DNA of 64,000 nt, taken from NCBI GenBank assembly GCA_964016885.1, contig OZ024745.1, forward strand, positions 58,714,001-58,778,000, in the 5' to 3' direction. A program made the translations under genes and the position numbers. Within the stretch, counting starts at the first letter, position 1; each line of letters starts with the position of its first letter. Source of the DNA: Eledone cirrhosa. Lineage: Eukaryota. This document shows, in pieces, positions 2,761 to 64,000 of this stretch. The notes below the pieces were generated by a model. It did no database searches and had not been told where the DNA came from. It saw only the letters and a list, made by a program, of their open reading frames with translations.

Positions 2761-3734
2761 TATCGGAGAAAGCTTTTAGCGATACTCCGGCCAAATTCCA
2801 ACTCACTCAACAAACATTAGGAAATAAGAGAGTATATTCCTAATTAAACGTTCGGGGTTCTAACTAAATGTATTGTGTGGAAAATTGGCTGTATTATTTC
2901 ATATGAGACATATCGAATATATCTCTTCCCAGACGGACGTCTCGTTTCTTTATAAGATTCCTACAATTTGGGTGAAATTATACCAATTTATGTAGGAGCT
3001 TGTATAAGATCAACAGATATATATATTCAAGTGGGCTCTTATAATTCATCAGTGGGTGCCCAATAATACTAATATTGATAATCTAACCAATATCAGTATT
3101 TAACGATAATCACCATCAGTGCCTGAGGTATCTGTTAGGTTGCTACTCCAACAGTTCTAAAGAAATACTCAAACTGATTCAAAAATGAGGAAGTATATTA
3201 CCGCATATATATATATATATGTTTGTATATGTATAATAAAGCCAAAACAATGCAGGTATGGACATAGAATAAAGAATACAAATGCAAAAGAATTTGTTGA
3301 CAATTAGTCTTTTACCTTAGATTTATTTAAATGTCCTTAATTTTCGAGATAATATCTCTTCTTCGGAGGGAAGTAAAGCGGTTCTAAATAGCTTGCCAAG
3401 TCATGCTGACAGGAAATGGTATAGAGTATCTGTTCTATCTCTAATGTCAAAGAGTTTAGGTTAGGTGGATAAAGAGTAGTCTCCCTTTAAAAGGGGTTTT
3501 ATTGTACACGCCTGTTTAAGAGTGTGGGAGAATGCGTGAAGGTGTAAGTATGTGTGAGTGAGTCTGAGAATATATGTCTATACGTAAATTATCTCCTGTT
3601 AGAACTTGTCTTTGTGTGTGTATGTGTGTGTGTATGTGTGTGTGTGAGAGGGAATAAGTGGAGGTGTAAGCGTGTGGGTGTGGGTGTGTGCGTGTGTGTG
3701 GGAGGGGGATGTAAATATGGGGCTAGATGCTCTA

Positions 3735-5880
3735 TCAAGTTATAAATTGGGTGTTGAGTTCTAGAATATTATTGATTGGTGGTTGTGTTTTGTCTATAAT
3801 TAGTCCTTCCTTAATTCTAAGATTGCCGAGGTTTCTTTCCTTAGTTTCTATCCTAACTGTTATGGTTTTGTCGGTGTTTTTGCATTTAACTAGGTGTTTC
3901 TTAAATGAGGAAGCGTTAGTATTGAGGTGTTATTTTATTCTTATGTGGAGTGGTCTGGTGGTGCTACCTACGTAGAAGTTGCTGCATTTGTCGCACTCTA
4001 GTCTGTATACGACGTAAGCCTGGTGGCATAGGTCTGTGTCGTTGATGGGGCAGTTGGCTAGCCTGCAGCGGTTTTCATGTCTGGTGGAGTGTCTTTTGGT
4101 TAGCTGTCCGCGTAGAGAAGGACCTGAGTGGGCCAGTTGGATATCTAGTCCCCCTCGTCTGATAGCTCTGCAGATGGCTGTTGTTGTTTCGTCACTGAAG
4201 TGTGGGAGCTTCAGGAAGCAAGTGTTAGTGCCTCGGGTGTGGTGTCCTCTGTTCTTTCTGGCACGGTTTGTGATGGATGTCGTGTATCCGTTCAGTTTGA
4301 GTACTTCCAGGAAATGTGTGGTGTGTGTGTCTCGGTCTCTAGCGTCGGTGCATTTGTACCGGGAACGTGTTAGTTCGTTCCTTATGTATCCGAACTTAGC
4401 GCCGGCTGGGAGGGCCGATCTGAAATGTACGAACAGGTCCCTGCTGGCGGCTTTTTTATAGAAGCAGGTGTGGATGTTGCCTTCCTCTGTTACCCTGAGT
4501 TGGAAGTCCAGTAGGGATAGGGATCCGCGGTCATCGGGGTGTTCCATGCTGAACTTTATACTGGCGTCTATGCTGGAGAATGTTGTGTATATTTTATCCG
4601 CCTCCTCACGGGATGATGTAAGGATGAGTATGTCATATACATATCGGGTGAAGAAGGTATGGGAATGGCAGGTGTTGAGGGCTCGGCATTCTAGCTGGTT
4701 CATATAGGTGATGGCCAGCAGGCCCGATAGGCTGGATCCCATGGGTAATCCTGTTGTCTGTCTGTATGTGTGGTTGTGGAAGGTGAAGTACGTGTTGTCC
4801 ACCGTGAAGGACAAAATCTGGTGTATGTCCGTCGGATGGAGGCCGTAGCAGTGGATGTCCTCTGCGACCACGCAGTCCGTCAATAAATCGACAGCTGGAT
4901 GAGCGGGGACTGTAGTGTAGAGGGAGACAACGTCGAGGCTAAAGGCGTATCTATTTAGTTTAAGTTGTTCTTGCTGGAGTTGGTGTAGTCTACGTATGAC
5001 TTCGTCGGAGCTACTGACATGCCCGGGAAAGGTGGAGAGTAGAGGCTTGAGGACCTGGGAGAGGAGCCAGGAAATTGTATAGGGGTCCTTCTATGCTAGA
5101 GACGATGGGTCTTATTTGTGTCTTAGTACTATTCTTGTGGGTCTTGTTGAGGTGGTAGAAAGTGGGCAGTCTTTTATTTCTAGTGGTGTAGTTGAGCTTA
5201 ACTTTATTTGGGAGTTGTCTTCTCTTACAGATGTCGAACCAGATGGAGTTGGTCTGTTTTTCGATCTGGGCTGCAGTCGTGTCCGGGATCTCTGTATATA
5301 GTTCATTGTCGCTTAGGTGTTCAAAGGCTAGGTTGTTGTATGTAGCTTGAGAGATGACGCAAAACTCTTTACCTTTGTCGGATGGTAAGTATATAAGTTC
5401 CCTATTCCGTAGGTTCTTCAGGGCGAGTTGTTGTGTCCTGGAGAGGTTTGGGGCTATCTTCTTCTGTTTCCGTAAGATGTTAAATACGGAATGTTTTAGC
5501 CTCGAGAGTTTTTCTTCAAGCTCGCGGTTGGCAGGCGGTGGGTAGAGTGGGCGATCCAGTTGGTATATCGGGAATCTGGGTTTGTTAGGTTCCGTGGTGT
5601 TGTTGCCGAGAGTCGATATCCATTTTAGTTGGTAGGCAGCCCGACAGAAATTCGTTTCTATGTCGAGCCATAATTTGACGTCCAGTCGCTGTTTCAATAT
5701 GAACTTGGGACCCAGGCTGAGGAGGTCTAATTCCTCTCGGGAGAGGGATCCTGTCAAGTCTGTGACGAGGTGTTTTGCGTCAGGTGTGTTGTTGGTCGGG
5801 GCACCGCTAGGTTCGGTGTTGGTACCGTCTTGTTCGCCTCTGTTGGTGCTTAGAGTTGGGTTGTTGTTAAGACGGTTAGC
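3735..5880 (-). pseudogene. PLE reverse transcriptase-GIY-YIG endonuclease ORF, inactivated
   Basis: Motifs LLSLGPKF, SDKG, RPIVS, SLDVVSLYT, QTTGLPMGSSLS, RYVYDI (YVDD mutated), LSLLD and VVYRLECDKCSNFYVGSTTRPLHIRIK. Frameshift near 5065 and in-frame TAA at 3930. Confidence 0.9.
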
Positions 5881-6063
5881 CGTGCTGAGTTTGAGAAATG
5901 TTTGCGTTAGGCATGTACAATAAAACCCCTTTTAAAGGGAGACTACTCTTTATCCACCTAACCTTAACTCTTTGACATTAGAGATAGAACAGATACTCTA
6001 TACCATTTCCTGTCAGCATGACTTGGCAAGCTATTTAGAACACTGGTTTAACCGCTTTACTTC

Positions 6064-6098
6064 CCTCCGAAGAAGAGATATTATCTCGAAAATTAAGG
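6064..6098 (+). ncRNA. Minimal hammerhead-like motif in pLTR of PLE A (mirror copy at about 3335-3370, minus strand)
   Basis: CCT-CCGAAGA-A-GAGATA-T-TATCTC-GAAA-AT-TA-AGG; U4 to C variant core, 6-bp stem II, 3-bp stem I. Confidence 0.55.
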
Positions 6099-6257
6099 AC
6101 ATTTAAATAAATCTAAATTAAAAGACTAATTGTCAACAAATTCTTTTGTATTTGCATTCCTTATTCTATGTCCATACCTGCATTGTTTTGGGTTTATTAT
6201 ACATATACAAACGTTTATACCTCATTACACAATGCTTCAAGTGAACTATAACTTCCT

Positions 6258-6311
<54 letters not shown>

Positions 6312-6319
<8 letters not shown>

Positions 6320-6922
6320 CAGATTAAAGTTTAAGCAAAGAATCGCTGCTTTCACTGCTTTCACCCTTAACGGGATCTTCTGAAACTAAAAATATCAATC
6401 TGTGAACGCAGAAGTAAATATTTCGAAAAACGATGCAACCGAAGGAAGACAGGAAGACGATACTTTGGTTCGTGGAAACGTTCCCTGGCAAAGAACGGAA
6501 AAAAACGATAATAATACGTCATTATTTGGAGCGGTGAAAACAATTACACGCAAAGACAAAACCACGTTTATGGTTTAAATGAAGTCATAGACTAATATTC
6601 TGTTATTGTTTTCACCGCTCCTAATTATGATGTATTATTTTCGTTTCTTTCCGTTCTTTGCCAGGGAACGTTTCGACGAACCAAAGTATCGTCTTCCTGT
6701 TTTTCTTCGGTTGCAACGTTTTTCGAAATATTTACTTCTGTGTTCACAGATTGATATTTTTAGTTTCAGAAGATCCCGTTAAGTGTGAAAGCAGCGATTC
6801 TTTGCTTAAACTTTACTCTGTTATTTTAATAAATATTTGCTCTATGGTTCTTATATATTTGATATATATTTATCCTTATCGAGCCCTCTTTGGATTTATT
6901 ATTATCACAATATTCAAATTTA

Positions 6923-9710: not shown

Positions 9711-10436
9711 CATACGCGCATGTATGTGTGTATTTTTTTGTTATTTCGTTACTTAATTTTTAAATACCTACTCGGGAGACAAGAGTTTAGGGTTCAAGGC
9801 GCAAGATCGTTAACGCATGTATATTTAATTCCCAAAATGTGTGATGTGTGGTGTGCTTAGACAAGCCTCTTCGTTTCATGCTACTTAAATTCACTAACCT
9901 GGCAGGTAAATTTGCGACTGACTTTGTACTGTTTGTTGTTTAAAATTATATGAAATCGGGATAAGCTCCGATCTGATTAACTTCGTGTCTTCAGAAAGAG
10001 ACTTTAATCTTTAAGTAGAGGAAGTTATAGCGTTGTCAGAGATAATTCCAGTTAATTTAATTCGAAGGATCGGATAAAAAAAAAAACTTCGAATTGTTTC
10101 TCTATTTAGGATGGCTTCAAAACAAAGCATGTTGGACAGCATTCCAACTAAAATATGTATCTTTAAATGCAACATAATTGGCATAATTGAATCACTACCC
10201 GATAAATTGTTAAAACTCCAATATCTGAGTAAGTTTTACACTACAAAAGAAATGCATTGTGTATTTGAACAATACATCTAAAGCTATAGGTTCAAGTTGG
10301 GTCAACGGTTGTAAAACGATTAACAGATATTATAGAAATGATACATGTATTCCATTGTCTTTTAACGACTGATTTATTTATGAGGGGTTAATAGCTTTAG
10401 TGACGTTTTTTAAAACTCTAATATAACTCGCCACAA

Positions 10437-10625
10437 AATAATTGTTTCTACTTTAGGCACAAGGCCAGCAATTATCCAGTGCATTACTGGTACTTTATTT
10501 TATCGACCCCGTAAGGATGAAAGGCAAAGTCAACCTCGGCGGGATTTGAACTCAGATCGTAAAGGGACGTAACTATGCTGGAAAGCATGGCGTCCGACCC
10601 TCTACCGATACTGCCAATCCACCGC
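10437..10625 (-). mobile_element. tRNA-derived SINE, major family, young short-tail variant
   Basis: A-box-like GGATTGGCAGTATCGGTAGAG and B-box GAGTTCAAATCCC on the minus strand, core GCCTTTCATCCTTACGGGGTCGATAAAATAAAGTACC, TSD CAAAATAAT. Confidence 0.9.
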
Positions 10626-10992
10626 AAAATAATAAACGTTAAAATAGATAGCTACTTATTTTTGAAAACTAACCATTTAGCTAAATCATATTATCCTCCC
10701 ACATGTCCTTGCAGTGATGACATTGCTAATTTCGTGTGACTCATTATTCGAGTTGTAGTAAAATTGACTCAATTACTCAATTACTGGCTTCTACGAATAT
10801 TTACTATCTAACGTTGAGCTACTAATCGGTTTGTCTACTTTCATTAGAAGACACCATAAAAACAAGCACGGTAAATGATCATCATATATCACTATACCGT
10901 AAAACTACACTCATACTCATACTCATACTCACACACAGATACATCCCTTGCACACGACTCCATGGAACTGTTATGGTCGCATACATATTCAC

Positions 10993-16302: not shown

Positions 16303-16345
<43 letters not shown>

Positions 16346-16349
<4 letters not shown>

Positions 16350-16775
16350 ATGTATGTATACGTACATACATATATGTATACAGACGTACAGTAGCATGCA
16401 TATATATACATATATATATATATATATACATATATATACACATATACATACAGGTACACATACATATATGCACGCATTAGTTTAGCGGACGTTTATTACA
16501 ACGCCGCTTTGTTCGTTTGTTTGTCAACAAACCGAACAGCCTGAATTTATGCCATACGGTGTTAAGGCAACCACGTCACCTTTTTGTTCAACACTGACAC
16601 ATCGTTCCTGTGTCAGTGTTGAACAAAAAGGTGACGTGGTTGCCTTAACACCGTATGGCATAAATTCAGGCTGTTCGGTTTGTTGACAAACAAACGAACA
16701 AAGCGGCGTTGTAATAAACGTCCGCTAAACTGATGCGTGCATATATGTATGTGTACCTGTATGTATATGTGTATA

Positions 16776-16838
<63 letters not shown>

Positions 16839-16955
16839 GCATGCTACTGTACGTCTGTATACATATATGTATGTACGTATACATACATACTTACATTTAA
16901 GTAAGTGCCATACTAAGAGTGAGAAATGAAATTTCGTTTTCATTTTTTTCAACTT
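16346..16955 (+). mobile_element. Family B fold-back element, copy 1
   Basis: Near-perfect palindrome with arms 16346-16601 and 16609-16892, 7-nt loop, tail about 16893-16955, (TA)n on both sides. Homologous to 28493-29216. Confidence 0.9.
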
Positions 16956-16973
16956 ATATATATATATATATAT

Positions 16974-17480
16974 ATCAAAATGAAGATCCGAAGGCAAGGT
17001 ATAAATTTCCAATCATTTTAATCACGACACATGTTTCAATAAGAGATAGATCGATCGTGAAGCCATGGTCGATTATCACTGATCTCGTCAGGTGAAAATG
17101 AATTGTCTTCAAATCCTTGATATGAGGGAGAAAATTAGCGATGTTCACTCACAGAGTTTATTCCCTCATATGCGACTGAACATCGCTAATTTTCTCCCTC
17201 ATATCAAGGATTTGAAGACAATTCATTTTCACATGACGAGATCAGTGATAATCGACCATGGCTTCACGATCGATCTATCTCTTATTGAAACATGTGTCGT
17301 GATTAAAATGATTGGAAATTTATACCTTGCCTTCGGATCTTCATTTTGATACTAATACTCAGTTTTTACATCATCTAGCTGTTCCCATGAATGGAATTGG
17401 AGATATACAAAAGCGTGGAGAACTTAATATTGTTAACACAAATTTATTGTACCGTTTTACACAACCAATAATACATATAA

Positions 17481-18697: not shown

Positions 18698-19081
18698 TTA
18701 TATAATGATGAGTGTTAGAGAGTTAAAAGCAAATCCATCATCAATTTTATTCTGACATCACAAAATGTTTGTTTTCCTATCTATTTGAAATTAAATCGGG
18801 ATATAGTAGAAACTAACACGACTCTTTATTATATTTCAATGTAACACAAGTAGGCTTAAAGATTCAGTTTTGACGATGCAACTAGAATCATATTATGGAT
18901 ATGATTCTAGTAAGGATGTTTACATTGAGTGTTTTTTTCCCAAATATATGGTGTTTACGTGTTGTCATTGATTCTGGGGAGAGGAAAGTAATGGTGTCAC
19001 TGATTTTGAGCCAGTGCGGCGATGGACGAGATAAAATACCTTCCTTCCAACCCTCTACGATTCCAGATACTCCATTACTCT

Positions 19082-19905
19082 ATAATAATGGATTCTGATT
19101 TAGACACAAGGCCAACAATTTTGGGGGAGGGAAAGTCGATTAAATTTACTCTAGTACGTTACTGGTACTTTATTTTATCGACCCCTGTAAGGATGAAAAG
19201 CAAAGCTTATCTCGGTTGTTATTGCCCTATAATAATTGTTTCTACGTTTGGCACAAGACCAGCAATTTGAAGGGAAGGGGAAAGTCAATTAAATCGACCT
19301 CAGTACGTTACTGGTACTTTATTTTATCGACTCTGTAAGGATGAAAAGCAAAGCTAACCTCGGCGAAATTTGAACTCAGAATGAAAAAGACCGCAACTAT
19401 ATGCCGCAAAGCATGTTATCCGGCGCTCTACCGATATTGCCAACCCACCGCCTTCCATTGCCCTATAATAATTGTTTCTACTTTTGGCACAAGGCCAGCA
19501 ATTTTGGGAGAGGGGAAAGTCGATTAAATCGACCCCAGTGCGTGACTGGTACTTTATTTTATCGACCCTATAAGGATGAAAGGCAAAGTTAACCTCGGTG
19601 GGATTTGAACTCAGATCATAAAGGGCCGTAACTCTTTGCTGCAAAGCATGGCGTCCGACCCTCCACCGATACTGCAATTCCACCACCCTATAATAATAAT
19701 AATAATAATAATAATAATGGTTTCTGATTGAGGCACATGACCAACAATCTGCGGGGAGAGGTAAGTCGAATAAATCGACTCCTGTGCGTTACTGGTACTT
19801 TATTTTATCGATCCCGGAAGGATCAAAGGTAAAATTGACCTCGGGAATTGATCTAACTTAGGCACAAGGTCTGTACTTCACTAATACTTTATTTTATCAA
19901 ACCAG
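19082..19905 (-). mobile_element. Head-to-tail array of five major-family SINE copies (two full-length)
   Basis: Copies about 19085-19215, 19230-19452, 19466-19688, 19716-19845 and 19855-19905, separated by the repeated target (ATTGC)CCTATAATAAT. Confidence 0.9.
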
Positions 19906-26933: not shown

Positions 26934-27640
26934 ATCTATCTATCTAGGGCGGGTAAAATTCCCGAGATCCATGGACGAGTTCTCTCCAGCGGTCTCTGTC
27001 CCTCATTATCGCTGCCATGTCCTGCGTCTCTAACAAACCAGTGTCTGTCCTTAGGGCATCAACATACGTTAACCTTGGTCTTCCTCTTCCAGTGTGTCCA
27101 TGTAGGGGCTCCCACGGGAGCACTGAGTGCAATGTCAACTCTGGATGTCGGTGAGCATGTCCAGCTAACCTCAGTCTCCTCTGTGTCACTTTTGAGCTGA
27201 CGTTTGGGAAGCTCCCATACAGCTCTGAGTTTTTCATCCTCAGTGTATACTGATTGATGTTCAGAGCCATCCTCAGCATTCTCGTGTAGCACCCATCCAC
27301 CATCTGAGTGAGTTTCTTGGTCAGTGTCCAAGTCTCAGACCCGTACAGCAGCACAGACTCCACTACAACAATGAAGAGGCGGATTTTCAGGTCTTTACGA
27401 GGGTCCGACTTCCACACCGATCTCAAGCTGTGGCACGCCGCCCAGGCTTTGCTCTTCCTCTCAGCCACATCATCTTCCGTATTCCCAATCTTTGCTCCCA
27501 AATACAGGAAGCCCTCAACCAAATCTAGCGGCTTCCCGCCTACATTAGTGATCCCCTCTGACTTCTCAACATTCTCTACCAGATATTTTGTTTTAGTCTC
27601 ATTCATTCTCAGCCCCACACTCATCATATAATTCACCCGT
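26934..27640 (-). mobile_element. 5'-truncated RTE-clade LINE 3' end
   Basis: ORF with GLRMNETKTK, FLYLG, VESVLLYGSETWTLTK, RRLRLAGH and GRGRPRLTYVD. (ATAG)n tail directly after the stop; possible TSD ATATACAA. Confidence 0.9.
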
Positions 27641-28492: not shown

Positions 28493-28496
<4 letters not shown>

Positions 28497-29211
28497 TGAA
28501 ACAAAATGAAAACGAAATTTCATTTCTCACTCTTAGTATGGCACTTACTTAAATGTAAGTATGCATGTATACGTACATACATATATGTATACAGACGTAC
28601 AGTAGCATGCACATATATATATATATATACATATATATATACATATGCATACAGGTACACATACATATATGCACGTATCAGTTTAGCGGCGCTAACGTCG
28701 CTTTGTTCGTTTGTAAACAAACTGAACAGCCTGAATTTATGCCATACGGTGTTAAGGCAACCACGTCACCTTTTTGTTCAACACTGACACAGGAACGATG
28801 TACTAGTTTCAAGCTTGTTAGCTATCATCAGCACCGTTTACCCATCTGCCAGATAGTTGAACGTTCGAAAGTATATACTTTCCTTATGAAAATTAACGGC
28901 TGAGTTCAACTATCTGGCAGATGGGTAAACGGTGCTGATGATAGCTAACAAGCTTGAAACTAGTACATCGTTCCTGTGTCAGTGTTGAACAAAAAGGTGA
29001 CGTGGTTGCCTTAACACCGTATGGCATAAATTCAGGCTGTTCGGTTTGTTTACAAACGAACAAAGCGACGTTAGCGCCGCTAAACTGATACGTGCATATA
29101 TGTATGTGTACCTGTATGCATATGTATATATATATGTATATATATATATATATGTGCATGCTACTGTACGTCTGTATACATATATGTATGTACGTATACA
29201 TGCATACTTAC

Positions 29212-29216
<5 letters not shown>
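28493..29216 (-). mobile_element. Family B fold-back element, copy 2, with hammerheads in both arms
   Basis: Arms about 28550-28862 and 28904-29216, tail 28493-28549, (TA)n on both sides. Confidence 0.9.
28928..28972 (+). ncRNA. Minimal type I hammerhead ribozyme (mirror copy about 28794-28838, minus strand)
   Basis: AACGGTG-CTGATGA-T-AGCT-AACA-AGCT-T-GAAA-CTAG-TA|CATCGTT: 7-bp stem I, palindromic stem III ACTAGT, predicted cleavage after A28965. Confidence 0.85.
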
Positions 29217-30551: not shown

Positions 30552-30745
30552 CGAAGGAAATGTGGTAAGGAACCAGGTGGACCATAACGCACCAAAGTAC
30601 TCATTACTTAGGGTAGTAGAGTGGGTAATAGGAACGAGTAGGACCCCGACGGCTGAGCTCAAGCCGTTTCGACGGCTAATTCTGGATAGTCCAGAATTAG
30701 CCGTCGAAACGGCTTGAGCTCAGCCGTCGGGGTCCTACTCGTTCC
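30549..30745 (-). mobile_element. Family C fold-back element
   Basis: Perfect palindrome 30631-30745 with 3-nt loop at 30687-30689, tail 30549-30630, (TA)n on both sides. Further family C pieces at 31163-31240 and 43062-43150. Confidence 0.88.
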
Positions 30746-37287: not shown

Positions 37288-39788
37288 ACGGAGAAAAAGA
37301 CGATTATTAGGAAGAAAAACATTTTTTTTCTCTTTTTATTTTTTTCTCTCTTTTTTCTGGGTTAGAAAATGATTAAAACGAAATATTTTACTTTGTGTCA
37401 AGTGTTAAGGTATTAGTTGATTTATTTATTAATTAACAATGGCATTTATTTATTTATTTATATATTTTATAATTGTCTATTACCGGTTTCAGCATTTTTA
37501 TGCATTATCAAATGATAATAATATGTATTGGTGTAGAATGGTGGTGTTGGACATGTTAAAGAAATCGTGTAGAAAGAATAATGTTATTTACAAACAAGGT
37601 TTATGAAGTGAAAAGAAAAAAGAAAAAAAACAGACGTAATAAGGCAATGTGAAAGAAAAAATAATGTTATTTACAGGCATAGTTCTTGAAGATAAGCAGA
37701 TCAAAATGTATTAATATAGCAAGAGTGCTTAGTTGATCCATGATGGATGCAAATGGTGGACTGGGGTTTGATATGATTTCCCTTTTTAGAGAGTTAATAT
37801 GCAGGAGGAGGTAATTCATGCTGGATGATATTTAATTTATTTAAGAAAAAGGATTAGGTAGGGTGTGAGGGAGGTAACTCTTTAGAGAGACATAGGTATT
37901 TGTAAATGTTTGATTGTTCGTTCCAGTTTTAGTTTAGTCCGAAGTTTAATGCATTAAGTAGAGATTGGAATTTGTTAATGAAATACGTTTCCTTATTGGT
38001 ACGATGGATGAAAGTAGCGTTGTCTATGAATTTGTAAATGGGGAAAATTTTAAAGTTTGGATGTTGATTTGTGTGTTTTTTAATTCTTCTAGTCGTGTGT
38101 AGCATGTGTATTTATCTGAAACTATTATGCAGATCCTTCTGGCTAGGTTATAAGGAATTGCCATTTTGGTGTGTGTCTAGGGTGGCACGAGTTGAATGGA
38201 AGGTATTGTTTGGAGTCTGTGGGTTTGTAGTATATGTCTGTTTCTATTTTGTTGTTTGTTTTCTTGATGAGTATGTCGAGGAAAAGGAGTTGTTCATAGC
38301 TGTAATCCATTGTGAATCGTAAGTTTGTGTTGAGTCCATTCAGAAGGGTTTTAAACTAAAGTTTCAGATAAATACACATGCTACACACGCCTAGAAGAAT
38401 TAAAAAACACACTTATCAGCAGAAACTACCCACCATCCCTAATCAACAATGGATTCCAACGTGCCCTAAAACTCGACATCCAGGAACTCAGACACCCCAA
38501 ACCCAGGAATGAACCACAACAGAAAACTCTACCATACATCTCCACACACAACCCCCTCAACAATGAGGCATTCGACACCATCCTCCAGAACATTCCTTTA
38601 CTAAAAAGAGACCCAAGAATGAACAAAATCCTCCAAACACACAACATCATAAAGAGCAAAAGACAACCCAAATCCATAAAAAACATCCTCACACAAGCCA
38701 AAATCCAACAAACCCTCACAATGAACCCTACAGTAACAAAATGCGGAAGGCCCAACTGTGGCATATGCATAAATCTAATAGAAGTTCAACATTCCATTTT
38801 AAACAAGGACATTTCACAGTTAAACACAACTTTACATGTGCATCTGAAAACCTAATCTATGTTTTACTTGCTCAGGTTGTTAGAGCACTACATAGGACAG
38901 ACAGAAACAGCCTCTGACAACGTATGACCGTCCATAAATCACAAATTAAAATACACGAATACAGAAAGATTGCGTTTAGTGAACACATCGCCAATTGTGC
39001 ACCCAACCAACATCCAAACTTTAAAATTTTCCCCATTTACAAATTCATAGACAACGCTACTTTCATCCATCGTACCAATACGGAAACATATTTCATTAAC
39101 AAATTCCAATCTCTACTTAATGCATTAAACTTCGGACTAAACTAAAACTGGAACGAACAATCAAACATTTACAAATACCTATGTCTCTCTAAAGAGTTAC
39201 CTCCCTCACACCCTACCTAATCCTTTTTCTTAAATAAATTAAATATCATCCAGCATGAATTACCTCCCCCTGCATATTAACTCTCTAAAAAGGGAAATCA
39301 TATCAAACCCCAGTCCACCATTTGCATCCATCATGGATCAACTAAGCACTCTTGCTATATTAATACATTTTGATCTGCTTATCTTCAAGAACTATGCCTG
39401 TAAATAACATTATTTTTTCTTTCACATTGCCTTATTACGTCTCTTTATTTCTTTTTTCTTTTCACTTCATAAACCTTGTTTGTAAATAACATTATTCTTT
39501 CTGCATCATTTCTTTAACATGTCCAACACCACCATTCTACATCAATACATATTATTATCATTTGATAATGCATAAAAATGCTGAAACCAGTAATAGACAA
39601 TTATTAAATATATAAATAAATAAATAAATAAATGCCATTGTTAATTAATAAATAAATCAACTAATACCTTAACACTTGACACAAAGTAAAATATTTCGTT
39701 TTAATCATTTTCTAACCCAGAAAAAAAGAGAGAAAAAATAAAAAGGGAAAAAATGTTTTTCTTCCTAATAATCGTCTTTTCTCCCTGT

Positions 39789-45696: not shown

Positions 45697-46459
45697 GTTA
45701 TATATATCAGAGTAGTACAATATTCTAAACCAAAACGAAATATGACAAAAGTAAATATTAAAATGAATAAAAGAAGACATTTTTTTTCAAAACATCCTAC
45801 TGTGAGACCATTTGTGTTTCATGTTATACATAACAGCGTGGTACAACTCTTCTATACATTATCACACACTGAAACACGTAAATTAATAATACTAAGGTTG
45901 ATGACTAAATTGGCTACTTGATATCACGAACACAAATTTTGGCATCAGATTCCATAACCTGTTACTGGGGAATATTTCTAAACCTGATGGAGCCCTTCTC
46001 CTCTCCAGGTTTTAACACACTCGATTTGTTACAGACGAGGAAAGAAAGTAATAGAAGTAAACTGAGAAAGAGATATTAAAGAAGAATCTCGACCCTAGTT
46101 CTAGACTGGTACTCTATTTGTCGACCTCAGAAGGATGAAAGGCAAAGTTGATCTCCACATGCAGCAAAACGGAACGAATACCACAAAGTATTCTATCGAA
46201 TGTTCTAACGGGTCTGTCAATTCGCCTATATATATACATACCTACACATATATATGGGGTCTTCAGAAATAATTATTTCTGAAGACAGCATATATATGTG
46301 TAGGTATGTATATTCCCTCTGATAGTTTGTAAAATTTTTACATAGATCTATATGATATACATACCAACACACATATATATCCTAGAAACGATCGTAAAAT
46401 GATGACATTTTTAATATAAGGAACTGTTTCTTTGTTTTTATTCATTGTTTTTATTAATT

Positions 46460-49030: not shown

Positions 49031-49420
49031 AAATAATAGGAGGCTGGACTGGTGTAAATCCTTGAAAGGTTTATTATACTATGATCATTACAATGACCGG
49101 GTTCAGTATGAATCCGGTGACATCATATAGTCGATTGTCCTCTTGTCTCTGATTTTCAGCCCCATGGATTGTATCTGTTATATTTTGAATACCTGATGAT
49201 GTCACCGGATTCATACTGAACCCGGTCATTGAAATGATCATAGTATAATAAACCTTTCAAGGATTTACACCAGTCCAGCCTCCTGTTATTTTATAATAAT
49301 TAACTCCGTACTCGCACCACCAACTACACAAACGAAGACGGGTGAGTTGCTCTCCATAATATTACATCGAGATTGACCATACGGAATGACCAGTTCTATC
49401 CAGTGGTGAACCAACAAACT

Positions 49421-50200: not shown

Positions 50201-52293
50201 ATTATACTTGGGGAGGGTCATATTTATGTAATAATATTGCCAGAATTAATAACAGAACACACTCACTGTTTGGTTGGTTTTCGCTTCTGTGTCCTTTATA
50301 TCGGTTAATTTAATTTATTCGGTCCTCAATGTTACCATTGACTGACCAACGGTCAAAAATACAGATACAATATAGACACAAACACATATATATAGTCTAC
50401 ACATATATATAGTCTATAACTACCCTAAAGGGCCACATATTCAAGTTCAACGAGAAGATCTACACCCAAAATGAGGGAGCAGCCATTGGCGTCAGCATAG
50501 CTGGTGACGTTGCCAACCTATTTATGGTATGGTGGGAAAGGAGACTTAAAGATCTCCTTGATGAGTGCTCCATAGACCTCATCATATACTCTCGTTACGT
50601 AGACGACATCAATATAGTAATAAGGACATCCTACAAGAGAGCACTAACAAGTTTGATTTAGAACGTAGCACAAAGGAAAGCATCCAGCAGATAGCTAATT
50701 CCATACACCAGAGTATAACTATAACTATCGACTACCCTTCCAAACACCCTAACAATAGACTACCTGTATTAGACACGGAACTCTAGATTAACACTATAGA
50801 CGAGAGAGCCCAAATTCTCCACTCACACTATGCTAAACCCATGGCCTCCAAATACCTGATACTCAAAAACTCAGCAATGTCCAGTAGTGCTAAGTTTAAT
50901 ATTCTGATCGCAGACTTGGTACGAGTGATGAAGAACGTGTCCCGCATGTGCGACCCAACAGAAATGGAAAGATACATCCAACACTTCATCAACCGCATGT
51001 AGTTCTCTGGCTATAACCAAAGAGACAGAATCAGAGTATACGAAGGAGCCACAGAGAAGTATAAGACCCTCATAGAACTGGACATGAAAGGAATCTGCCC
51101 ATTATACAGGCGCAAATCATGGAATAGCTTAGATAGGACTAGACATAAGATAGGGGAAGCCACCTCATGGTACGACAACCAGAGATACCAGAGTGTCATG
51201 TTTGTGGACGCTACCTCTGGAGGTAAATTAGCTAACCAGTGTAGAAAGGCCCTGAGAAAGACCCACTTAAAGATTAAGGTGGTAGAAAAGCCGGGAACCA
51301 CCATAAAATCCCTGATCAGCAAAACCTACCCTTTTAAGAAAACCCACTGTACTAATAGGAAATGTATCATATGTAAAGTAAACCCCCGGATAAACTGTAA
51401 AACTAGAAACGTAGTCTATAGCATAAGATGTACAGAGGGTACTTGCAAAAACATGACAACAACATACATAGGCGAGACAGCTCGTAGCATAGGTGAAAGG
51501 ATAGACCAACACTGGGGGGAACTAAAAGGACGAAAAAACGGTTCAGTACTATACGAACATGGCAGACAACAACACGACGGTAACATAGACAACATAGAAA
51601 TTAGAATAATATCTAAACATAGAAATGACCCAGCAGATAGGCAAATCAGAGAGGCCAGCGAAATAGAACTTAGAAGGCCAAGGCTAAACAGAAAAAATGA
51701 ATGGAACAACAACAACACCCAAACAAACAAGACTGACCTAAGAGAAGTATAAATAAATAAATAAATACATACACAAGCACAATAACAACAAACACATATA
51801 AACACACACGAGTAAACTAAGATAGAATACAATAACCAATACACAGTCACCCAAACACGAACACACATCAAACAAAACACTATACACACACGCAAACGCA
51901 TGCGCAGAGAAGACAAAAATATAAACAAATAAATAAATAAATAAATAAACTGACTAAATTAAGATGGCGTAGGCATACAATGCAACGGGAGGAAACATAA
52001 TAGCACCACTGACGATGATCCAGATGTGCAACGAAAGAACTTTGTTAGACTATATATATGTGTTTATGTCTATATTGTATCTGTATTTTTGACCGTTGGT
52101 CAGTCAATGGTAACATTGAAGACCGAATAAATTAAATTAACCGATATAAAGGACACAGAAGCGAAAACCAACCAAACAGTGAGTGTGTTCTGTTATTAAT
52201 TCTGGCAATATTATTACACAAATATGACCCTCCCCAAGTATAACAATATTTGTTTCGGCACAGGATTTCATATCAAAAACCTCGCAAAACTAA
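50201..52293 (+). mobile_element. Penelope-like element E copy 1 (possibly Naiad-like), 5'-truncated, inverted pLTR plus tail
   Basis: 50201-50399 is the reverse complement of about 52046-52243; tail about 52249-52293; RT/EN coding 50431-51752. Confidence 0.92.
50431..51752 (+). pseudogene. PLE RT (C-terminal half)-GIY-YIG ORF, disrupted
   Basis: YTQNEGAAIGVSIAGDVANLFMVWW, SRYVDDINI, DYPSKHPNNRLPVLD, HYAKPMAS, C-x4-CxxC linker, NVVYSIRC..C..YIGETARS..ERIDQH and RQIREA. One frameshift near 50630 and two TAG stops. Confidence 0.9.
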
Positions 52294-54211: not shown

Positions 54212-54257
54212 GAAAGACGGAAAGTGAGAAAGAAAATAGTATTATTAGTGTATTTAA

Positions 54258-54448
54258 GGGCGGTGGATTTGCAGTATCGGTAGAGAGTCGGACGCCATGC
54301 TTTCCAGTATAGTTACGTCCCTTTACGGTCTGAGTTAAAATCCCGTCGAGGTTAACTTTGCCTTTCATCCTTACGGGGTCGATAAAATAAAGTACCAGTA
54401 ATGTACTGGGTAATTGCTGGCCTTGTGCCAGAAGTAGAAACAATTATT
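54258..54448 (+). mobile_element. Young major-family SINE with 16-bp TSD
   Basis: TSD ATTATTAGTGTATTTA at 54241-54256 and 54443-54458. Confidence 0.92.
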
Positions 54449-54496
54449 AGTGTATTTATGAAAGGAAAATGCCTACCATCATGTGTATTAATTATT

Positions 54497-54685
54497 AATT
54501 GTTTCTACTATTGGCACAAGGCCAGAAATTACCCAGTACATTACTGGTACTTTATTTTATCGACGCCGTAAGGATGAAAGGCAAAGTTAACCTCGGCGGG
54601 ATTTGAACTCAGAATGGCAAGGGCCGTAACTCTATGCGTCAAAGCATGGCGTCCGACCCTCTATCGATACTGCCAATCCACCGCC
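54497..54685 (-). mobile_element. Young major-family SINE
   Basis: Full head, core and tail; TSD AATTATTAAT. Confidence 0.9.
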
Positions 54686-54876
54686 AATTATTAATGTAAT
54701 GCATAGAGTAGAGGCTAAAATCTATTTAAAATTTATTCTGTACATCATCTGTAGTAGAAGTACGTTTCGATTACTTATATCACATCGCTACAGATCAGGG
54801 ACAATATATTATTTGTAAAGTTATATTAAAGATGGCTTTTTCAAAGTTATAGTTAAACCATTGATGTATAGGGGAA

Positions 54877-55295
54877 ATAATTGTTTCTACTTTAGGCACA
54901 AGGCCAGCAAGTACCCAGTGCATTACTGGTACTTTATTTTATCGACCCCGTAAGGATGAAAGGCAAAGTTAACCTCGGCGGGATTTGAACTCAGATTGTA
55001 AAGGGACGTAACTATGCTAGAAAGCATGGCGTCCAACACTCTACCGATACTGCCAATTCACCGCCCTTGATGTATAGGGGAAATAATGGTTTCTAATTTC
55101 GGCACAATGTTGGAAAATTCTGGGGAGGGGAAAGTCGATTATATCACCCCTAGTACTTTACTGGTATTTTATTTTATCGACTTCGGAAAGGCTAAGTTGA
55201 TCTCGATAGTAGTTGAACTCACAACGTAAAGAGCATGAACAAATACTGCTGCACATTTCTCCAATGCTCTAACAACTCTGCTAGTGCATCACGCT
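54877..55295 (-). mobile_element. Young SINE (54877-55066) inserted at the 3' end of an older SINE (55081-55295)
   Basis: 21-bp TSD TTGATGTATAGGGGAAATAAT at 54861 and 55067; degenerate third copy TGTATAGGGGGAATA at about 55295. Confidence 0.88.
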
Positions 55296-55849: not shown

Positions 55850-56335
55850 TATCCTTACATCTCTTTGCCAGACACTTACCGTAGACTTTACCGGGAAGAC
55901 CTAACAAGGATATCCCTCTATAATTAAAGCGATCTTTCTTCTCTCCCTTTTTGAAAAATGGAATTATCACTCTCGATCGACATTGCTCAGGTGCTTTTCC
56001 AGAGATCTAGGTTCCCTGGCACACACGAGTCAGCCAGAAAATACCTTTCTATTTAAGGCTTTTAATACATCAAGCCGAATTTCATCCTCTCCAGAGGCTT
56101 TGCAGCATTTGAGCGCTTTAATTGCTCTGATGACTTCAACCTCGGAGAGTTTAGTTATCGCTCCCAGATGCACTTCATGTACATCAAATGTTGTTGTGAC
56201 TGGGTTTTGGGAAATCAGCAAAGTATTCTCTTTACCTGTCGAGGATGTACCTCTCTGTATGTGGTTATATATAGCAGTCATCTTCCATCGCTTGTGTCGA
56301 TACGACTTCATCTTGGAATAACAACATCGCATTTA
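55850..56335 (-). mobile_element. Decayed RTE-type LINE fragment (pre-RT and RT start)
   Basis: [20 protein letters not shown] and IIPFFKKGEKKDRFNYRGISLLGLPGKVYGKCL in different frames. Confidence 0.85.
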
Positions 56336-56637: not shown

Positions 56638-57340
<703 letters not shown>

Positions 57341-60103: not shown

Positions 60104-60624
60104 TTATCTCTTTCTCTTAATTTCGAGTATATTTTCTTTTGACCGGCCACCTTCCTGGTGGCAAGGTTGTAAAAGAAAAGAAATTGTCATCCCTTGAATC
60201 GCAAGAATGTTTTGCAAATTTTGAAGGTACCAGCTATCGCAGCCATTTGTAGACTATGTATTAGGGAGCTGCGCTCTTTGTCCGCAAATACAAGTTCAGT
60301 CATACTTTGGTCCAAGCGTATATAACCTGTAGCTCCAATAATGATGGGTATGAAGCTAAAGGTGTATCTTGGATACTGGATTTGTAAACTCCTCATCAAT
60401 GGTCCGTAGATGTCCTCCTTCTCCTGTATTTTTCTGACAACGTTTACATCAAGTTGGCAGCTGATCTCCACAACAGAACACGTTTTCAATGTGTGGTCCC
60501 AAACAACAATATCAGGCCGGTTGTGCTTTAATTTGGTGGCAGTTTTTATTTCCAGGTTCCACCAGTATTCCTTAGTGCCATCTGTCTCAATATATTCTTC
60601 CTCGTTTGTTGTTAATTTTGTTTT
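60104..60624 (-). mobile_element. 3' end of an R4/Dong-like RLE non-LTR retrotransposon within (TATG)n
   Basis: Frame extends upstream of the listed ORF: YWWNLEIKTATKLKHNRPDIVVWDHTLKTCSVVEISC..D.N..KIQEKEDIY..L..PIIIGATG. (TATG)n at 60087-60103 and 60625-60703. Confidence 0.8.
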
Positions 60625-60703
60625 ATGTATGTATGTATGTATGTATGTATGTATGTATGTATGTATGTATGTATGTATGTATGTATGTATGTATGTATGT
60701 ATG

Positions 60704-61384
60704 TCAGGTCACCAGTTGGTGCTACTGGTAACATGTCTCCCAGTACAACCTGTCTCATGGTCGGGTCGTTGGCGACTAAACTGGCAACCCCACCAAGGTT
60801 TCTTGGTGAGGAGGGTGACTTTGGACATCCTGCAGGACTAAAAACAAAACCTGTCAAAGGGCAAAGGAGCCCTTAAGAGTCAATGGCCATCCAAAATCCC
60901 CGGGAGAGATGACCCCTTAGCCTTTGTCAAGGCAGAATTCTAGGAGAAGGAAAACTGATATAACACCTGCAACCCTGATGGTATCCAATGATGTTGACTT
61001 GTTCTTCTTTTTGGTAAATATCATCTTGGTTAAGAGAGTGGGACTGGCTTTGTGCAGTGCCTTTGCTCACTATAAAAGCTTCACGGCACAGGCATTGCTT
61101 TATATCTGGAGATCTCTCTGCACTTGTCGTTACATGGTACCATGGGCCCAGCACTATGTGTCAATAAGTGTAGTGTTTGTACCAGAGTTTTCAAGTCGCT
61201 GGCTGGACTAAAAAGTCACACTCGTTCAGCGCATCAGTAAGGGTTCTCCTACATGGATATAAAGTAGTGGCCGTACTCGAAAACGACTTGGCAGCCACCA
61301 TGTATGTATGTATGTATGTATGTATGTATGTATGTATGTATGTATGTATGTATGTATGTATGTATGTATGTATGTATGTATGTA
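60704..61384 (+). mobile_element. Short internally deleted RTE derivative (5' UTR plus terminal C2H2 finger plus (TGTA)n tail)
   Basis: RTE 5'-UTR-like CTAGGAGAAGGAAAACT at about 60940. 61163-61240 translates NKCSVCTRVFKSLAGLKSHTRSAHQ*. 3' stem-loop, then (TGTA)n. Confidence 0.65.
60729..60784 (+). ncRNA. Degenerate HDV-like ribozyme
   Basis: P1 CATG/CATG(GTC), P2 CCAGT/ACTGG, P3 ACA/TCT (one mismatch), L3 ACCTG pairing with GG (P1.1), P4 TCG-TTGG-CGA, J4/2 CTAA. Confidence 0.5.

Positions 61385-62779: not shown

Positions 62780-64000
<1,221 letters not shown>

Follow-up and report, generated by a model that had tools for sequence, protein, structure and literature searches.

The inverted family B repeat at one site of the window, termed copy 1, is best read as two separately primed cDNAs joined by a 3-nt microhomology, a reading to which we assign a probability of roughly one half and which needs no cleaved RNA end. 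The window is the whole stretch of Eledone cirrhosa DNA that was analyzed, 64,000 nucleotides in length. Under the two-cDNA reading, family B would be transcribed into a multimeric or circular, uncleaved RNA which would be bound in trans by a Penelope-type protein, and this protein, as a dimer, would nick both strands of a (TA)n target. Two reverse transcriptions would then be primed, one on each target strand and at start sites separated by about 63 nt, and the cDNAs would stop at scattered positions before being joined by short overlaps, in copy 1 via ACA. That the end of copy 1 came instead from a self-cleaved RNA, as the initial annotation had proposed, is a serious possibility which we hold at somewhat less than even odds.

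Family B has a unit of about 470 nt with a G+C content of 0.36, and is present both as dispersed monomers and as tandem arrays with a spacing of 466-484 nt, unit lengths being mostly 420-520 nt. A 19-mer located 3' of the predicted hammerhead cut had 15,874 exact matches in the 3.0-Gb genome, the reversed control had 0, and the older subfamilies, which carry T at +11, are additional to these matches. Family B does not code for protein, each of its tandem units carries a hammerhead, and its insertions have the anatomy of the Penelope type; it is a non-LTR retrozyme of an already described kind. The features of the two copies in the window are presented in Table 1.

Table 1. Family B features in the window. 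Unit positions are numbered from +1, the first base 3' of the predicted hammerhead cut; negative positions lie upstream.
Feature	Position	Strand	Remarks
Copy 1, whole	16346-16955		pair of mirror arms inside (TA)n tract
Copy 1, left flank	16307..16345		(TA)n target
Copy 1, short arm	16346..16601	-	unit ~+10 to ~+250, without tail
ACA overlap, 3 nt	16599..16601		common to both copy 1 arms, spans predicted cut
Copy 1, long arm	16599..16955	+	unit -1/+1 to ~+312, with tail
Copy 1, hairpin centre, 7 nt	16602..16608	+	unpaired
Copy 1, one-sided tail, 63 nt	16893..16955	+	between two fixed 3' end sites
Copy 1, right flank	16956..16975		(TA)n target
Copy 2, left arm	28493..28904	-	tail and intact hammerhead
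Copy 2, hammerhead mirror copy	28794..28838	-	predicted cut after 28801
Copy 2, right arm	28904..29215	+	without tail
Copy 2, type I hammerhead	28928..28972	+	predicted cut after 28965

The fold-back described at copy 1 by the initial annotation was confirmed as a hairpin in which the left arm mirrors the right. Between the arms there is one substitution and a difference in AT-run length, and only the right arm carries the 63-nt tail. The tail-bearing arm had been said to begin precisely at the cut and to join its partner through a CA microhomology. While CATCGTTCC is indeed read from 16600 with no ribozyme sequence upstream, base 16599 also matches the A which precedes the cut in copy 2, and the match of the mirror arm extends to 16601. 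The shared bases are therefore three (ACA) rather than two, and the junction can be placed at four positions, of which the predicted cut is one. Contigs from four runs that were aligned to copy 1 gave no information on this junction. The junction of copy 2 itself precedes the cut by about 60 nt. The unit also contains a perfect palindrome of 16 nt (28867-28882), located some 80 nt before the cut, and one inversion elsewhere (L175) is centred there.

An intact hammerhead with a predicted cut after 28965 had also been claimed for copy 2, and this was borne out by a strict scan of the window, which returned 2 matches in total, one in each arm of copy 2. The motif has the type I core, with CUGANGA, GAAA and UH placed around three helices, helix I being of 6-7 bp, helix II of 4 bp, and helix III a 2-bp stem inside a 6-nt palindrome. 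Conservation was assessed with 371 intact hammerhead copies taken from the fetched loci, a non-random sample in which the copies are related. Pair 3 of helix I was G-U in 240 copies, A-U in 55, U-G in 44 and U-A in 6, and was paired in 347 of 371 as compared with a shuffle maximum of 290, while helix II was nearly invariant. This covariation in stem I suggests that the helices are maintained by compensatory change, probably through few events given the relatedness of the copies. The position of the G10.1-C11.1 pair of canonical motifs was occupied by U-U in 359 of the 371 copies; this pair is described as typical, not invariant, in canonical hammerhead motifs (PMC4209133). An Rfam scan of the window gave no match at the gathering score, and the best predicted fold of the monomer was not the ribozyme fold. 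Animal hammerheads of such anatomy work as dimers according to Cervera and de la Pena (PMC4209133), who described it for non-LTR retrozymes as well (PMC7229834), and the palindromic helix III of family B points to dimer activity, with self-cleavage predicted at the site. In four copies (L075, L083 and two more) the helix III palindrome has been lost by a recurrent 6-nt deletion.

The anatomy of insertions was examined at the loci of the first 100 of the 15,874 19-mer matches, which amounted to 55 loci. A head-to-head junction was present in 33 of these. Paired arm 5' ends were at most 30 nt apart in 5 of the 33 junctions, about 4 being expected if the ends are independent, the median offset was 107 nt, and only 3 of 66 arm ends lay within 5 nt of the cut. 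Intact ribozyme sites were traversed by many arms, and even the cut-site arm of L164 crosses two. The 3' ends, on the other hand, fell at two sites, +242 to +254 (31/61) and +298 to +312 (30/61), and in all 16 head-to-head pairs with both 3' ends scorable there was one arm per site. The tail was one-sided in 16/16 scored pairs and was accompanied by an inverted 5'-truncated arm and an AT-rich target, as in Penelope-type insertion. In Penelope-like elements an inverted 5'-truncated copy and a one-sided tail are described as standard (PMC8557442, PMC3846280), and for a Penelope-like protein Frangieh et al. reported that two start sites bound the tail, that both target strands are cut and extended, that a dimer is predicted and that targets are AT-rich (PMC11167929). 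In their purified system, hammerhead cleavage was not required for insertion in vitro (PMC11167929). By analogy, the two arms of family B insertions would represent two cDNAs, one per 3' site, primed on opposite target strands.

No autonomous partner of family B was identified in the window or in the 275 loci compared with it, a point against the two-cDNA reading. The window holds a broken Penelope-like element at 3221-6260 on the (-) strand, in which a reverse transcriptase (Pfam RVT_1) is followed by a GIY-YIG-like motif recognized by eye, with inverted terminal repeats at 3221-3513 and 5909-6212 and with some 47 nt extending into (TA)n on one side; this remnant had no family B match and no strict hammerhead match. 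When the Penelope-like fragments of the window were compared with 275 loci by tblastn, matches were obtained in two loci. ORF fragments resembling C-terminal parts of Penelope-like proteins by eye are present at 38355-38855, 51003-51752 and 63292-63708, and the two of these three which were tested gave no Pfam match. Long head-to-head hairpins of other families, several beside (TA)n, occur at 6320-6820, 16976-17348, 30631-30745, 46232-46378, 49038-49284 and 57014-57339, and are possibly further Penelope-driven non-autonomous elements. Fragments resembling non-LTR retrotransposon proteins by eye were seen at 26944-27639, 55905-56332 and 60187-60708. A presumably SINE-like repeat, about 150-220 nt long, abundant and dispersed, has >15 copies (10435-10635, 19071-19848, 54253-55245 and others).

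With respect to 5' ends, arm starts were counted genome-wide in 3-position bins using patterns that require three upstream mismatches. The pattern for the cut bin excludes the junction type of the window, the 4 copies of which were added by hand, and passes only part of all junctions. Raw matches numbered 58 in the cut bin, 68 in the +5 to +7 bin and 44 in the -9 to -7 bin, and true junctions made up 19, 22 and 22 of the 30 loci inspected per bin, respectively, the remainder being internal indels (one locus of the -9 to -7 group was reassigned to indels by eye). Scaled, and with the 4 window-type copies included, the cut bin held 41 arm starts as compared with a control mean of 40, a rate ratio of about 1.0 (0.69-1.5). 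For the older subfamilies a hand tally of the first 100 of 526 matches, from which 22 were dropped as indels, was preferred because the script check miscalled substitutions and indels; 16 of 78 arm starts fell in the cut bin as against 13.8 expected, a ratio of 1.2 (0.65-2.1). A wider pattern with 535 matches showed no pile-up by eye in 100 of them, 30 of which were scored. The initial annotation had predicted that 5' ends would peak sharply at the cut across the genome; no such peak was present, the outcome which it had itself named as counting against its proposal, and the 5' ends of family B are not defined by the ribozyme in the manner of R2. The arm-start test is coarse, and 10-30 extra ends genome-wide would escape it.

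A different result was obtained with tight hairpins, defined as arms at most 30 nt apart and collected with an anchor sequence at +13 or with control anchors at -11, -31 and +79. The +13 anchor yielded 38 tight hairpins (37 loci) versus 20, 21 and 19 for the respective controls, an excess around the cut of about 1.9-fold (p ~0.002) in a test which was picked after the general arm-start test had failed and whose count includes the window's own copy. Conservation, scored for the +13, -11 and +79 anchors, is about the same in all three; the -31 anchor has one degenerate position, and a +39 control anchor (6 sites) was left out of the comparison because it is absent from the older subfamilies. The excess consisted mostly of arms starting at the cut. 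The long arm started at -1 or -2 in 16 of the 37 hairpin loci, some assigned by eye, and in 12 of these the join was via ACA. The exact junction of copy 1 was present in 4 copies (L159, L164, L235 and the window) with differing flanks and sequence variants, while a sister junction via the next ACA was present in 8 copies, all in subfamilies without the nearer ACA; the overlap nearest the cut was used in each subfamily group (4/4 and 8/8). Identical junctions also recur 3-5 times at other overlaps of 3-8 nt far from the cut, and for this reason the 4 copies of the copy 1 junction lie within range. Compared with 16 control products (mean 1.7), P was ~0.15 for 4 copies, 0.016 for 8 and 0.013 for the sum of 12, the control list being rough and hand-grouped, with products of the -31 anchor grouped by eye as their automatic coordinates were overfitted. 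None of the 38 tight hairpins joined two cut ends bluntly or symmetrically. The copy 1 type of junction is more frequent among tight hairpins than chance would give, by a modest excess.

The excess at the +13 anchor, the use of the nearest overlap and the high sum of 12 (under a rough model) all count against joining by overlap alone. They would be accommodated by a rare cleaved template without snap-back, in which both reverse transcriptases reach and leave the RNA at one self-cleaved 5' end, one cDNA end is trimmed by 9-11 nt, and the two are then joined at the closest bases they have in common. Such a route is also consistent with identical junctions in differing flanks, with a conserved and covarying ribozyme, with tails found on either arm (6 vs 3, see below), and with an arm-start test too coarse to exclude the additional ends. 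We nevertheless consider it unlikely, as arm starts show no general peak at the cut, two cut ends were never joined symmetrically or bluntly, 4 copies are ordinary for a 3-nt overlap, and the hairpin test is post hoc with the window's own copy in the count. By rough extrapolation, self-cleaved RNA would be the template of well under 1% of insertions and, even if the route is real, would account for about 10-20 hairpins among many thousands. We put forward only tentatively, and with more doubt than belief, that rare insertions of family B record hammerhead cleavage in vivo, both enzyme subunits copying cleaved RNA to its end and the cDNAs joining at the nearest shared bases to give the most recurrent hairpin junction of the family, with nearly all other insertions coming from uncleaved or circular templates.

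The initial annotation had combined self-cleavage with snap-back, whereby one cDNA runs off the cleaved end, folds back and copies itself into the second arm. In its favor, the cut-site arm of copy 1 is the longer and tailed one and differs little from its mirror, and self-priming has been proposed for Penelope inversions (PMC3846280). Both outer ends were visible in 9 of the 12 ACA junctions. While the cut-site arm was tailed in 6 of these (the window, L152, L159, L164, L165 and L226), in the other 3 (L232, L234 and L235) the cut-site arm was shorter and without tail and the second arm carried the tail. As a self-copy cannot gain a tail which its template lacks, snap-back is not the general route to the ACA junction, and the two different 3' sites in 16/16 inversions speak against it as well. 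It would moreover demand a second arm terminating precisely at the +250 site, most inversions have paired arm ends that bear no relation to each other, and a cDNA ending at +1 was predicted to fold weakly as DNA (-1.5 kcal/mol) and into a structure other than the required hairpin. Snap-back is quite improbable for copy 1 too, although the structure of this copy by itself would be compatible with it. Of the combined proposal, the cleavage part retains the hairpin excess and the conserved hammerhead in its favor, while the absent 5' peak stands against it and the tail reversals stand against the snap-back part.

Secondary rearrangement, in which a longer inverted repeat lost its centre by deletion or quasi-palindrome correction between shared bases, appears less probable still. 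Junctions do recur at overlaps and later deletions were found in several hairpin loci, but wide-centred long inverted arms persist in most sampled loci, and rearrangement leaves unexplained why the overlap nearest the cut was used. Near-perfect palindromes can be artefacts of assembly or of fold-back during library preparation; here neither the sequence nor the ends of the two arms are identical, unrelated flanks surround them and many loci have the same anatomy, so that this explanation can be dismissed for practical purposes.

The two-cDNA reading of copy 1 resembles the twin priming of LINE-1, in which two cDNAs are made from both target strands and joined by microhomology. In contrast to LINE-1, the internal priming sites of family B are fixed, with about 63 nt between them, and its two arms are copies of the same sequence. 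The closest relatives by unit structure are the non-LTR retrozymes of animals (Cervera and de la Pena 2020, PMC7229834; Li et al. 2026 preprint, 10.64898/2026.07.22.740005), described like family B as low-G+C, non-coding tandem units with a type I hammerhead each and as dispersed in forms from monomers to multimers. The unit of family B is longer (about 470 nt vs the 170-400 nt reported), it has a fixed U-U beside the core where G-C is typical, and it differs from the retrozymes as described there in its frequent head-to-head arms and one-sided tail; the word "tail" had 0 matches in the main text of the Li et al. preprint. Li et al. linked retrozymes to Penelope-like elements by phylogeny (10.64898/2026.07.22.740005). 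Non-LTR retrozymes are expressed as monomer RNA in linear and circular form; for family B an RNA search listed no holder. With Penelope-like elements as described (PMC8557442, PMC3846280, PMC11167929), family B shares partial tandem organization, a 5'-truncated copy in inverted orientation, a tail confined to one end, AT-rich targets and two start sites of reverse transcription, while it is unlike them in having no ORF and a tail of about 63 nt rather than 30-40 nt.

In the largely open-access literature searched, no paper was found that places the 5' ends of genomic retrozyme or Penelope-like copies relative to the hammerhead cut. Since most 5' ends of family B ignore the cut, they support, genome-wide, the cleavage-free insertion reported for the purified system (PMC11167929), and they limit cleaved templates to a fraction of one percent. 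The strict rule that opposite arms end at different 3' sites provides mechanistic evidence that Penelope-type machinery mobilises a retrozyme on both target strands. With R2, as described by Eickbush et al. 2013 (PMC3774820), family B shares the idea that 5' junctions in the genome are determined by a ribozyme cut, the join involving chance microhomology; in R2, however, the cut of an HDV-like ribozyme is the 5' end of full-length copies, while nearly all arms of family B ignore theirs. If the hairpin excess holds, genomes would nevertheless contain a countable record of ribozyme cleavage in the germ line.
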